A stretch of 64,000 nucleotides of DNA from assembly GCA_965238075.1 (NCBI GenBank), contig OZ250173.1, positions 2,528,001 through 2,592,000 of the forward strand. The letters run 5' to 3'. This DNA is from Candidatus Entotheonellaceae bacterium. GTDB lineage: Bacteria > Tectomicrobia > Entotheonellia > Entotheonellales > Entotheonellaceae. How positions within the stretch are numbered: the stretch's first letter is position 1; the number at the start of each line of letters is the position of its first letter. Below the pieces are notes generated by a model that was not told the origin of the DNA, ran no database searches, and was given only the letters and a program-made list of their open reading frames with translations. Positions 25,381 to 29,995 of this stretch are shown piece by piece. Made by a program: the position numbers and the translations under genes.

Positions 25381-25412
25381 AAAAAAAGGGACCTCGGAAA
25401 ACCGAGGTCCCT
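25381..25412 (-). terminator. Rho-independent terminator of pqqA
   Basis: AGGGACCTCGG-TTTT-CCGAGGTCCCT-TTTTTT on the minus strand, about 18 nt after the pqqA stop. Confidence 0.9.
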
Positions 25413-25430
25413 TACGCATCAACAATCGTT

Positions 25431-25505
25431 TTAGCGATTGAGGATGTACATCGTGAGCTCAAAACCGAAACGCTTGTCCTGATAAGCAGGCTTGGTCCAC
25501 TTCAT
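25431..25505 (-). CDS. pqqA: PQQ precursor peptide PqqA (24 aa; not in the ORF track)
   Basis: [24 protein letters not shown]: W-x-K-P leader, GFE-x-T-x-Y (ExxxY) core, NR end; AAGGAG RBS. Confidence 0.95.
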   Translation of the reverse strand: [24 protein letters not shown]

Positions 25506-25590
25506 TGATTCTCTCCTTCAGGGAGTCACTTCCCGTGGTTGTCATCCCCCGTTCAGCGAGGGAACTTGTCAACATCGTCATCATTATCTA

Positions 25591-27241: not shown

Positions 27242-27260
27242 GTTTGGTGTGCTCCTTGTG

Positions 27261-28970
27261 CTAAACCTGCAAGGCTTCCGGCGCGGACACCCGCGATTCG
27301 GCAGGGCACGGCAGCATCACGCGCGCCCGGGTTCCCTGGCCGGGGGTGGACTCGAATACCAGGTTGCCGCCGTGGTCGCGCACCAGCGTGTAGGTGATGG
27401 CGAGGCCGAGGCCCGTGCCGCCCTGCTCCTGCTTGGTCGTGAAAAACGGATCGCATAGCCGTTCGACGTTTTCCTGCGGGATGCCGATACCGCTGTCCCG
27501 AACGTCGACCTCGACATCGTGGTCGTCCTGATTATAACGCGTGGAAACGGTCACCTGTCCGCTTTCTCCCGGCAGCGCCTCCAGGGCATTGGTGATGAGG
27601 TTGACCACCACCTGCTCAATTTGTTGCATATCGCCTTGCAATGGCGGCAGGCCGTCGGCGAGATCGACCTGGAAGTCGGTCGTCTTGGCGACGCGGTGGC
27701 GCAGCAGATTCACTGCCCGTTGCACCGCCTCGTTGACCTGCAAGGTGGCCTGCACGGCCTGCTGCCGGGGGCGCGCGAAATCTTTCAGATTGCTGACGAT
27801 GCGTTCGATGCGCTGCGCGCCGACGTGCATGTCGCGGATAAGCGCAGGCACGGTCTCGCGCATTTCCGCGTACGGCAGCCCGCCAATGAGAAACTCGCCG
27901 TTCTCGTCGTGGTAATCCTCCAGAATGTGCTGCGCATCGCCCCACGCCTCGGCCAGCACGCGCGCATTCATCATCGTCAGATTATTCGGGTTGTTGATCT
28001 CGTGCGCCACGCCGGCAACCAAGGTGCCGAGCGCGGTCATCTTGTTGGCCTGGATCAGTTGCAACTCCTGCTCACGCGCTTTCTCTTCGAGGCGCGTGCG
28101 TTCGTCGATCTCACGGCGCAAGTTGGCATTGGCGCGCCCGAGGTCGCGGGCGTTGGCGCGCAGGCGATTGAACAGGTAGACCAGATAGGCCAGCAGCACG
28201 ACGGCCACCAGATACAGCAGGATGCGGTAGGTTTGCGCCCGTGCTTCCATCTGGCTGTAGTACCGCAGCGAGGCGTCCCGCAGCGCTCGCACCCGTGTCG
28301 TGGTGGGAGCCGCCAGCAGTTGACGCAGCAGGGTATCCACTTCCGGCAGCACGTCGACGATCAGGTGCCCGTGCAAGGCCAGGGTGTGCAGATCGTGCTG
28401 TAACATGGGAACGCCGGTCATTTGGTTGAGCGCCGTCTTGATTTCGTTGCTGACGGCCCGCTGCGGCGTGCGCACAAAGCGCAGCATGGCGTTGGACAGG
28501 GTGCCGATGGCCGCGGCCACGGCGCGGTCGTTCACTGCCGTCTGGGTGCTGAGCACGTGGCCGGTGTGCAGGAAATACATCAGCGAGTTGCGCAGCAGGG
28601 CGTTGTCGGCCTTGAAGTATTCGACCAGCGTTTCCTTCTCCCGCACGGCGCGCGACAGTTCCGCGATGTGCCCGCCGATGGCCGCGGCAAGCTCCTCGGA
28701 CGCCGCCGCGTTCCAGGATTCCAGGTCTTCCAGGGCGCGGTACAGCCCGTCTATCGCTTCCGACAATGAATCGTAATGGGGTAACAAACCGGCGCGGGCC
28801 AGTAGCACGTCGCGGTTCAGTTCGGCATCGTGCACCTCAAAGACGTGCAGCGCCTCGTACATGCGTTGCCGCAAGCCCACATCCGGGCTTCTGCTCTGAA
28901 GCAACAAAAACGTCAACAGCAGCAAGAGGCCGGTGACGACCAGAAGCCGCCTCCATGGGATGCCCATCAT
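27261..28970 (-). CDS. Sensor histidine kinase with periplasmic DAHL-like helical domain
   Basis: TM, LNRDVLLARAGLLPHYDSL...FKADNALLRNSL, TM, AHEINNP, PFFTTK..GGTGLGL. Confidence 0.9.
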   Translation of the reverse strand: MMGIPWRRLLVVTGLLLLLTFLLLQSRSPDVGLRQRMYEALHVFEVHDAELNRDVLLARAGLLPHYDSLSEAIDGLYRALEDLESWNAAASEELAAAIGGHIAELSRAVREKETLVEYFKADNALLRNSLMYFLHTGHVLSTQTAVNDRAVAAAIGTLSNAMLRFVRTPQRAVSNEIKTALNQMTGVPMLQHDLHTLALHGHLIVDVLPEVDTLLRQLLAAPTTTRVRALRDASLRYYSQMEARAQTYRILLYLVAVVLLAYLVYLFNRLRANARDLGRANANLRREIDERTRLEEKAREQELQLIQANKMTALGTLVAGVAHEINNPNNLTMMNARVLAEAWGDAQHILEDYHDENGEFLIGGLPYAEMRETVPALIRDMHVGAQRIERIVSNLKDFARPRQQAVQATLQVNEAVQRAVNLLRHRVAKTTDFQVDLADGLPPLQGDMQQIEQVVVNLITNALEALPGESGQVTVSTRYNQDDHDVEVDVRDSGIGIPQENVERLCDPFFTTKQEQGGTGLGLAITYTLVRDHGGNLVFESTPGQGTRARVMLPCPAESRVSAPEALQV

Positions 28971-29995
28971 GATCCGTCCTCGACCGGGAGGGTCAACAAC
29001 TGTCCCTGGTATTCGCCGGTCAGCGTGTACAGGAACTGTACGATGAGCTCGATCTCCTCGGTGCGCAACGGCCTGCCGAGCTGTCGGGTGGCCATCAGGT
29101 CCACCGCGTTTTCCAGGGTCTGCACGCGTCCGTCGTGGTAATAGGGCGCCGTCACCGCCACGTTGCGCAGGCTGGGCACGCGAAAGACCTGCCGGTCTCG
29201 CTCGGCGCCGGTGGCGCCGAAACGGCCCGCATCATCGTCATCGCGCGGTCGGGTCTGGCTGCGAAAGATGCCGAAGCGCTGGAACATGTTGCCGCCCACG
29301 TTGACGCCCTGGTGGCAGGCGACGCAACCGTAGGATTTGAACAGGTCGTAACCTCGTTTTTCAGCATCGCTGAGTACGTCGGTATCGCCGCGCAGATACT
29401 GATCGAAGCGCGAATTGGGCGTGTTCAGCGAGCGCTGGAAGCTGGCCAGGGCGTGTCGCACGTTCGCCCGCGTCAGCCCGTCGGGGTAGGCGGTGTTGAA
29501 GGCGCTCACGTAGTCGGCGTTAGCCTGCAACTTGGGCAAAACGTCCGCCCAATCGCTGTTCATGATGGTGGGGTCGTGGATGGCGGCCTCGGCTTCCGCT
29601 TCGAGCGTACGGAAGCCGCCGTCCCAATGGAAGCGGGAGTTCAACGCCACGTTGAAAACGGTCGGGGTGTTGCGCGGGTGCAGGCCGCCCGTGAGGGTCG
29701 GCGGCCGTGACACACCGTCGCCGCCGCCCTGGTTGAGCCGGTGGCAGGTGGCGCAGGAAAAGGCGTTGTTACGCGACAGGCGCGCGTCGTGAAACAGCTT
29801 CTCGCCGAGGGCGACCTGCCCGGCATCAAGATCGGTGGAAAGAGGAATCGGGACGATCGGCTCGCTGTCCCAGGCGCCTGCCGGCGGCAAGGGGGTTTCG
29901 GCGTTCGGCGTCGGCGCGGCGCAGGCGAGGTGCAGCGCCATGACGGCCAGCGCGATTCGCACAACAACTGATTTGCCGATAGCCCACACAGTCAT
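28967..29995 (-). CDS. Diheme cytochrome c peroxidase-like protein
   Basis: CATCH and CVACH, RNTPTVFN, FHWDG, VPSLRNVAVTAPYYHDG, MATRQLG; ATGA overlap with the kinase. Confidence 0.9.
   Translation of the reverse strand: MTVWAIGKSVVVRIALAVMALHLACAAPTPNAETPLPPAGAWDSEPIVPIPLSTDLDAGQVALGEKLFHDARLSRNNAFSCATCHRLNQGGGDGVSRPPTLTGGLHPRNTPTVFNVALNSRFHWDGGFRTLEAEAEAAIHDPTIMNSDWADVLPKLQANADYVSAFNTAYPDGLTRANVRHALASFQRSLNTPNSRFDQYLRGDTDVLSDAEKRGYDLFKSYGCVACHQGVNVGGNMFQRFGIFRSQTRPRDDDDAGRFGATGAERDRQVFRVPSLRNVAVTAPYYHDGRVQTLENAVDLMATRQLGRPLRTEEIELIVQFLYTLTGEYQGQLLTLPVEDGS

Follow-up and report, generated by a model that had tools for sequence, protein, structure and literature searches.

PqqA, the precursor peptide of pyrroloquinoline quinone (PQQ), is consumed at one molecule per PQQ by PqqB-E, and to our knowledge the pqq genes of described systems are regulated through sigma-70 promoters and by regulators of methanol or ethanol oxidation. 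A signalling architecture resembling the one described here is that of ZraP-ZraS-ZraR and similar systems, in which a periplasmic accessory protein joins a two-component pair of the sigma-54 type. The locus analyzed in this work lies in a 64-kb stretch (the window, G000:C1:2,528,001-2,592,000) of the genome of a Candidatus Entotheonellaceae bacterium (G000), uncultured and associated with sponges, a single 3.35-Mb contig with 62% G+C, and comprises, on the minus strand and in this order, a sigma-70-like promoter, the genes of a dihaem cytochrome c peroxidase (CcP)-like protein, a DAHL-domain sensor kinase and an NtrC-type regulator, a 299-nt spacer, pqqA and a terminator. As judged from sequence comparison, the locus probably encodes a two-component system of the sigma-54 type, joined by a dihaem accessory protein in the periplasm, and the output promoter of this system would drive the sole pqqA of the genome. 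Because this single pqqA stands behind a sigma-54 promoter and beside a three-gene sensor, the cell probably sets its PQQ level by rationing the precursor.

With ZraPSR the locus shares a membrane kinase, an NtrC-type activator with a GAFTGA motif, a periplasmic third protein and a sigma-54 promoter beside the regulator genes; among solved proteins, ZraS matched the kinase core best. It differs in that the accessory protein is a dihaem CcP-like protein, presumed to contact the kinase, the sensor domain is DAHL and the output is a cofactor precursor peptide rather than a chaperone. Short pqqA units apart from pqqBCDE are found in methylotrophs, namely in Methylosinus trichosporium OB3b, whose single pqqA is expressed far above pqqB-E (PMC3615186), and in Methylophilaceae, with 3-12 pqqA copies (PMC4109929), but the available parts of these two papers report neither a sigma-54 promoter nor a dedicated regulator for them. 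A stand-alone pqqA is hence already known; its place as the target of a sigma-54 two-component system and the kind of accessory protein are new. A first-pass annotation of the window had stated that no description of this wiring was known, and our full-text literature searches, judged mainly by titles and the beginnings of abstracts and with subscription journals outside their scope, agree: those combining pqqA with sigma-54, rpoN or NtrC returned no sigma-54 pqqA promoter, and those on the DAHL domain and on operons of cytochrome c peroxidase, histidine kinase and sigma-54 returned no account of such wiring. A shared PQQ gene cluster is listed in a study of Entotheonella, the accessible part of which says nothing on how that cluster is regulated (PMC12858407).

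The pqqA gene and its putative sigma-54 promoter

The gene had been read at first pass as a 24-aa PqqA with an ELTMY core, a ribosome-binding site (RBS) and a strong terminator of its own, and all of these were found in place. The peptide, which carries the E-X3-Y core, scored above the cut-offs of both curated models (PF08042, 32.3 bits against 21.1; TIGR02107, 34.9 bits against 20) and was the only pqqA match in a profile search of the genome. A GGAG motif lies 7-8 nt 5' of the ATG, and the terminator hairpin has a 12-bp stem with 8 G-C pairs and a 4-nt loop, followed by a T-run. The possibility that the peptide is a PqqA look-alike serving another RiPP (a peptide made by ribosomes and modified after translation) was rejected, because this single match occurs in a genome that holds the full pqqBCDE set. 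The stems of the predicted leader vary in sequence between genera with their pairing kept.

The TGGCAC-N5-TTGCA promoter proposed in the first-pass annotation is present upstream of pqqA, 85 nt 5' of its ATG and co-oriented with it, with GG and GC at the consensus spacing, and it predicts a transcription start near 25580 if the C of the GC is taken as -12. It is the single match to the strict motif TGGCAY-N5-TTGCW in the window, where 0.15 are expected by chance. Two conserved repeats, the candidate upstream activating sequences UAS1 and UAS2, lie between the regulator gene and the promoter (Table 1); the exact 11-mer of UAS2 occurs only twice in the genome and, among 334 relaxed sigma-54-like sites in G000, only that of pqqA has two UAS 10-mers located 40-320 nt upstream. 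The genome encodes RpoN (rpoN, 435.9 bits) and four open reading frames (ORFs) with a full sigma-54 interaction domain, namely the adjacent activator and three others. A strict site at G000:C1:2305457 (+) stands 169 nt before an ORF judged from its N-terminal sequence to encode a PII (GlnB/K-like) protein, a classical sigma-54 target, and the sigma-54 consensus therefore seems to be in use in this bacterium. At 979-981 kb of G000, another activator gene is flanked by two further strict sites.

The remaining pqq genes are found far from this site. All of pqqB, pqqC, pqqD and pqqE scored above their NCBIfam cut-offs at about 76.5-79.7 kb of the contig, 2.48 Mb from pqqA as measured along it, and the only pqqC and pqqE matches above cut-off were those at 77.5 and 78.5 kb, bearing out the earlier remark that the 64 kb hold no pqqBCDE. 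The PQQ dehydrogenases, which it had proposed to locate elsewhere in the genome together with pqqB-E, were also found, with five PQQ alcohol dehydrogenase matches above cut-off and five more below. Genes for a methanol/ethanol-family PQQ dehydrogenase, a MoxJ-like protein and a c-type cytochrome lie 5' of pqqBCDE and PedABC-like ABC transporter genes lie 3'; no pqqA was found at this locus. The sequence TTGACA-17-TAGTAT, a sigma-70-like element about 80 nt 5' of the pqqB ATG, is kept, with a leader of about 80 nt, in 6/6 genomes of the window genus (regions L007 and L083-L088), and no sigma-54 site with UAS was found in the xoxF-pqqBCDE region of G000.

Table 1 Positions of the features discussed (in the window unless another region is given).
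Feature	Positions	Strand	Basis
Sigma-70-like promoter of the three-gene operon, TTGACA-17-TAGCAT	30034..30062	-	Consensus scan, 10/12 matches; motif only
Dihaem CcP-like protein, 342 aa	28967..29995	-	PF03150 (CCP_MauG), 1.2e-50
Sensor histidine kinase, 569 aa	27261..28970	-	Pfam DAHL 3.8e-54, HisKA, HATPase_c
NtrC-type sigma-54 activator, 478 aa	25805..27241	-	Pfam Response_reg, Sigma54_activat 4.1e-56, HTH_8
UAS1, GGGGTGCGACA-N-TTGCAGGCGCAAC	25763..25791	-	Conservation; 14 nt past activator stop, centre ~-197 from predicted start
UAS2, ...TGTCGCAGGGG	25682..25700	-	Conservation; centre ~-107 from predicted start
Putative sigma-54 promoter, TGGCACACAGCTTGCA	25591..25606	-	Consensus match and conservation
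Predicted pqqA leader, 75 nt	25506..25580	-	Hairpin GUUG.CA / CCCUCG...CGGGGG / UG.CAAC, and RBS
pqqA	25431..25505	-	Open reading frame and family models
Intrinsic terminator of pqqA	25379..25413	-	Hairpin 25413-25386 and T-run
Sigma-70-like promoter of pqqB	L007 6400-6470 (G000:C1 ~76.4 kb)		Motif, conserved

Just 3' of the pqqA terminator, at 25196-25285, the window contains REP-like (repetitive extragenic palindromic) sequences (GTCGGATTA...TAATCCGAC), whose 9-mer has 66 and 70 genome copies on the two strands; in contigs assembled from RNA libraries, this stretch shows very high summed depth and many loose ends, as a dispersed repeat would give. The genes at 21749-25124 (+), convergent on pqqA, encode succinate dehydrogenase/fumarate reductase flavoprotein and iron-sulfur subunits (PRK07803 and PRK12386 types).

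Distribution within Tectimicrobiota and in other phyla

Among 17 genomes sampled from the phylum (Tectimicrobiota), pqqA was detected in ten, with one copy each (6/6 in the window genus including G000, 3/3 in genus g3 and 1/1 in genus g6), and pqqC in nine. The order CcP-like gene, kinase, regulator and pqqA was identical in the five other genomes of the window genus, in which pqqC lies 0.7-1.1 Mb from pqqA or on a separate contig. The -24/-12 site, UAS1 and UAS2 precede pqqA in nine of the ten pqqA-bearing genomes. In the tenth, G010, the pqqA contig starts 165 nt 5' of the gene, and UAS1, UAS2 and the promoter follow the regulator stop, with the contig ending 92 nt past the promoter; the kinase orthologue of this genome (L034 6006-7697) has an in-frame TAA at codon 106, representing either a pseudogene or an assembly error in the metagenome-assembled genome (MAG). 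UAS1 is kept in all six genomes of the window genus and in G007, G010, G011 and G013, and the promoters of these ten genomes read TGGCAC, TGGTAC or TGGTAT-N5-TTGCA/T.

When the upstream regions of G000-G005 and G007 were aligned, the conserved columns corresponded to UAS1, UAS2, the -24/-12 site, the leader stem and the RBS, with diverged spacers between them. The same islands (UAS1, UAS2 and -24/-12) were recognized in G013 and G011, where pqqA lies on other contigs than the three-gene cassette and the upstream layout is GGGGTGCGAC..TTGCACCCGCAA, then ..TGTCAAAA..TGTCGTAGGGG, then TGGTAT-N5-TTGCT. In G007 (Candidatus Entotheonella baccata DD2), a solute-binding-protein gene of opposite orientation comes after the cassette. 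Beyond it stand the shared upstream elements and TGGTACGCGGCTTGCT, and these precede a 38-aa PqqA, a strong hairpin that lacks a T-run, and pqqB-C-D-E. In G015 (L037, G015:C27, 8150-8420), which retains the CcP-like and kinase genes, both repeats and a sigma-54-like site, CGGCAC-N5-ATGCT, come after the kinase gene, and the adjacent regulator has been lost.

The first-pass annotation had proposed that the system controls only the precursor. For the window genus this proposal stands, with pqqBCDE remote from pqqA and under a promoter of its own in 6/6 genomes, but in the sister genera the same promoter heads pqqABCDE. Control of the precursor alone thus appears to be a derived state of the window genus and, most simply, the entire pqqABCDE operon would have been under this promoter in the ancestor of the family.

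When 185,579 species, each represented by a single genome, were scanned for two kinase peptide patterns, 30 loci were obtained, and the cassette was found in Methylococcaceae, Competibacteraceae, Burkholderiales, Blastocatellia, Bryobacteraceae and others. Identity to the window proteins was 33-65% for kinase segments (outside the genus) and 59-76% for the cassette regulators. In a tree, the latter group together whatever their phylum, in a single clade (100/100) whose branch measures 2.95 changes per site, apart from the three other G000 activators. The CcP-like gene precedes the kinase gene in all loci outside the phylum with enough sequence, except L065. An additional PAS domain, on the cytoplasmic side, is present in the kinases from outside the family, with the exception of the one from Bryobacteraceae.

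UAS 10-mers, allowing at most one mismatch, were counted where the 3' end of the regulator gene is complete, as it is in 22 of the 30 loci, 14 of these lying outside Tectimicrobiota. They occurred at 2.19 per kb in the 500 nt past the regulator stop versus 0.15 per kb elsewhere, and at least one was present in 14 of the 22 loci, including seven of the 14 from other phyla, which had not been used in defining the motif. In Methylococcaceae, GGGGTGCGACAAT stands at +27 to +30 and TGTCAA..TGTCGCAGGGG at +129 to +132 past the regulator stop, the corresponding positions in the window genus being +18 and +116, and offsets of +18 to +30 and +112 to +132 hold for both Tectimicrobiota and Methylococcaceae. 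UAS1 also lies 3' of orthologous regulator or kinase genes in Methylococcaceae, in a Gammaproteobacteria MAG and in G015.

What follows the cassette promoter elsewhere is a gene for VgrG in L049 and L063, for a Kelch-repeat lipoprotein in L066, and for a secreted protein lacking a Pfam family in L050, L059 and L062, and the only likeness detected between downstream ORFs or proteins across phyla was a weak one, 30% over 170 aa, between the secreted proteins of L059 and L051. In four cassette-bearing Methylococcaceae, pqqA-pqqB are found elsewhere in the genome, without a sigma-54 site or repeats. The search for such triads in other genomes, suggested at first pass, showed linkage to pqqA within Tectimicrobiota, recurrence of the repeats elsewhere, and other downstream genes outside the phylum and in those Tectimicrobiota in which no pqq genes were detected.

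Some of these loci have features of their own. In the Competibacteraceae-like loci L049 (9763-12547) and L063 (9756-12434), the sigma-54-like promoter of the cassette, CGGCAC-N5-TTGCC, lies 5' of the gene for VgrG, the type VI spike. The region 3' of the cassette in L048 seems to be broken by ORFs resembling fragments of insertion-sequence transposases, a resemblance judged without a family search. L048 (9927-10040) and L062 (8021-8130), both from Methylococcaceae, share a conserved non-coding stretch of about 110 nt after a TGGCAY-N5-TTCCT site located 3' of the cassette, which could be a leader or a small RNA; no shared small ORF was found in it, and Rfam gave no family for this stretch or for the pqqA leader, only sub-threshold matches and one tRNA.

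Because the same cis elements recur at the same offsets in Tectimicrobiota, Methylococcaceae, Competibacteraceae-like Gammaproteobacteria and Acidobacteriota with different cargo, we tentatively propose that the CcP-like protein, the DAHL kinase, the activator, UAS1/UAS2 and the promoter may form an old portable cassette with exchangeable cargo, its haem protein being a peroxidase turned sensor. In Entotheonellaceae such a cassette might couple a periplasmic oxidant or the redox state of cytochrome c to rationing of the PQQ precursor, a reading that we regard as possible rather than probable.

Sigma-54-like motifs were rare in the upstream regions of 32 pqqA genes from other phyla (29 evenly drawn Pseudomonadota, one Methylococcaceae and two distant relatives), with one strict and two relaxed matches. 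In one of these cases, a member of Pseudomonadota (G480; L126 = G480:C43:6000-19000), an activator ORF of 977 aa with GAF, Sigma54_activat and HTH_8 domains (4132-7065) is followed by CGGCACGCTCCTTGCT, pqqA (7364-7426) and pqqBCDE. As in the window, the activator gene stands directly upstream of a GG-N10-GC site and pqqA and reads in the same direction; however, the activator there is a one-component GAF protein with no kinase, receiver or CcP-like partner, the repeats are different and pqqA heads a full operon. The same control point seems to have originated independently in this genome, and this pairing suggests that an activator beside pqqA arose at least twice, with different sensors.

The dihaem protein, the kinase and the activator

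A coupled operon of diheme CcP-like protein, periplasmic-sensing kinase and GAFTGA-containing activator, placed by the first-pass annotation just upstream of pqqA and co-oriented with it, was found in full. The CcP-like protein has a hydrophobic N-terminus and the motifs CATCH at residue 81 and CVACH at residue 224, and the stop codon of its gene overlaps the kinase start (ATGA). From hydropathy and Pfam, the kinase consists of a transmembrane (TM) segment (4-28), a periplasmic DAHL domain (30-249), a second TM segment (245-272), HisKA (His323) and HATPase; neither a PAS nor a HAMP domain was detected by Pfam in the kinase of the window. The activator consists of a receiver, an AAA+ domain with a Walker A motif (GETGTGK at residue 183) and GAFTGA at residue 229, and a C-terminal Fis-type helix-turn-helix (HTH), and since it scored 338.7 bits against the NtrC equivalog, below the cut-off of 558.6, it was considered a member of the family and not NtrC itself. 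On the other side of the operon, at 30195-31528 (+), lies a divergent pair of ORFs, DUF433 with an HTH and then DUF5615/PIN_10, which by domain names looks like a toxin-antitoxin pair.

Among solved proteins the CcP-like protein was closest to bacterial peroxidases (9qdt, 4.8e-68; 1iqc, 2.8e-62; 1eb7, 1.8e-59). It is distant from MauG (1e-15), and it fell below the cut-offs of the MauG/MbnH models TIGR03791 (155.9 vs 443.85 bits) and TIGR04039 (188.4 vs 362.85 bits; MbnH). With bacterial dihaem peroxidases (9qdt, 1iqc, 1nml, 1eb7) and with MauG/MbnH it has in common the family of its fold, a pair of CXXCH motifs, the Trp that bridges the haems and a His/Met haem. In a gap-free alignment to 1eb7, C51/C54/H55 correspond to C81/C84/H85, Trp94 to W124 and Met275 to M301, and, in the pocket, His71 corresponds to Leu101, Gln104 to Glu134 and Glu114 to Ile144. 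The position of the catalytic Glu is occupied by I, V or L in 13/13 aligned cassette-linked CcP-like proteins from five groups, as against Glu in 4/4 solved peroxidase chains shown and in the two other CCP_MauG paralogues of G000. The same 13 proteins all have a residue other than His at the His71 position and E, Q or H at the Gln104 position (Q in 4/13), and the bridging Trp and the Met ligand are invariant among them. The haem motifs, the Trp and the His/Met haem of a catalytic dihaem peroxidase are thus in place and, because the distal Gln/Glu pair is absent, the protein was named CcP-like rather than peroxidase.

The accessible part of a study of a Neisseria peroxidase describes Gln108 and Glu118 as conserved pocket residues, assigns cleavage of the O-O bond to the Glu and reports single variants as inactive (PMC10094543); a literature search on Glu114, Gln104 and peroxidase found nothing. 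The cassette haem protein appears to be peroxidase-derived and to lack the usual peroxide turnover, which fits a sensing role without proving it, and the haem-sensing role suggested at first pass gains support from the missing catalytic Glu. The protein could instead be a co-transcribed peroxide detoxifier beside a kinase that senses an unrelated ligand through DAHL, leaving a two-component system only. Its proximity to true bacterial peroxidases speaks for this explanation, and so do the two haem motifs, bridging Trp and Met ligand that it retains, but the substitutions at the Glu and distal His positions in 13/13 proteins, the reported inactivity of Glu variants and the kept CcP-like-kinase order, together with the stop/start overlap, make it rather unlikely in our estimate. 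The arrangement of three components is plausible, and on the present comparison we would give it an even chance.

Alternative explanations for pqqA expression and proposed mechanism

The link between the adjacent regulator and pqqA is likely, being well supported by comparison, yet several results weigh against it. The strict motif is unenriched in the genome, with 11 sites against about 8 scaled from shuffled sequences (0.15 per 64 kb), and since at least one match also arose in 15/100 shuffles of the 64 kb, the motif is not significant by itself; its position and its conservation carry the weight. The leader hairpin was no better than those of shuffled sequences (z -1.0 in the window; -0.3 to -1.4 overall). 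UAS 10-mers were absent from seven of the 14 loci outside the phylum. No pqq gene or PQQ dehydrogenase was found within the 6-kb flanks of any locus from another phylum, and in two genomes of the phylum that hold CcP-like and kinase genes, G015 (95% complete) and G008 (62% complete), neither pqqA nor pqqC was detected. The cassette is not PQQ-specific.

Two further such results concern read-through. No clear terminator was found in the spacer between the regulator gene and pqqA, and the contig of RNA run X1, 9.7 kb long, extends from 25370 unbroken through pqqA and its terminator, the regulator and the kinase, although it could be carried-over DNA. This run is one of 13, from four studies, that hold part of the stretch as assembled contigs, of which four (one per study) were compared; such contigs give no start, strand or level and may include DNA carry-over. 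Run X13 gave a 153-nt contig over 25402-25552 only, placing pqqA sequence in the RNA libraries of two studies, and runs X5 and X9 had no contig over pqqA, from which no inference was drawn. The end of the X1 contig at 25370, near the pqqA terminator, is a weak hint only.

Given the missing terminator and the unbroken contig, transcription could read through from the operon promoter, and pqqA could be constitutive, expressed in this way or from an unrecognized promoter and unlinked to its neighbours, with TGGCAC-N5-TTGCA a chance or vestigial match, as its recurrence in shuffled sequences would allow. We consider this improbable: the -24/-12 site and both repeats are kept in three genera in which the spacers diverge and, in G007, the repeats and promoter have moved with pqqA to the far side of the opposed solute-binding-protein gene, which excludes read-through there. 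A real sigma-54 promoter that answers to another of the genome's activators, of which there are three (a nitrogen or carbon regulator, say, acting from afar as activators can), is about as improbable, as the repeats co-occur with the clade of the adjacent regulator in other phyla at the same offsets past its stop and the paralogues are very distant in the tree. Of the wiring drawn in the first-pass annotation, what holds is that the adjacent activator very probably drives pqqA, with the site and repeats conserved in three genera and the repeats accompanying orthologous activators, with the qualification that the cassette also occurs with other downstream genes.

In the mechanism that we propose for control of pqqA by the adjacent system, the three-gene operon would be transcribed from its sigma-70-like promoter, which was recognized by motif only. 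The CcP-like protein would be exported and, having kept the electron-transfer haem and lost the acid-base Glu, would most likely serve not to detoxify peroxide but to report either an oxidant or the redox state of the cytochrome c pool in the periplasm. Its state may be passed to the DAHL domain of the kinase, as suggested by a gene order kept across phyla and by the overlapping stop and start codons. The kinase would then phosphorylate the regulator, probably at Asp60 as judged by position, and the regulator would bind UAS1 and UAS2, about 200 and 105 nt upstream, and open the sigma-54 promoter. The predicted product, from sequence and comparison, is a monocistronic RNA of about 200 nt made of leader, pqqA and terminator. 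With pqqB-E under their own sigma-70-like promoter, supply of the substrate peptide would gate the PQQ available to at least five PQQ alcohol dehydrogenases. Since the c-type cytochromes of the periplasm receive electrons from PQQ dehydrogenases and are the donors that CcP-type proteins usually draw on, a speculative loop could be imagined in which the haem protein signals either an oxidant or a lack of reduced cytochrome c and calls for more PQQ.

The absence of the catalytic Glu from all aligned cassette-linked CcP-like proteins suggests that dihaem 'pseudo-peroxidase' sensors form a subfamily of their own in several phyla, of which our searches found no description, and the conserved UAS sites provide a regulon signature that can be searched for in other genomes. 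If the proposed control is true, a signal-gated sigma-54 switch acting on the precursor alone would be a clean case of cofactor control by substrate supply, and it would give a handle on when uncultured sponge symbionts with at least five PQQ dehydrogenases start periplasmic alcohol oxidation.

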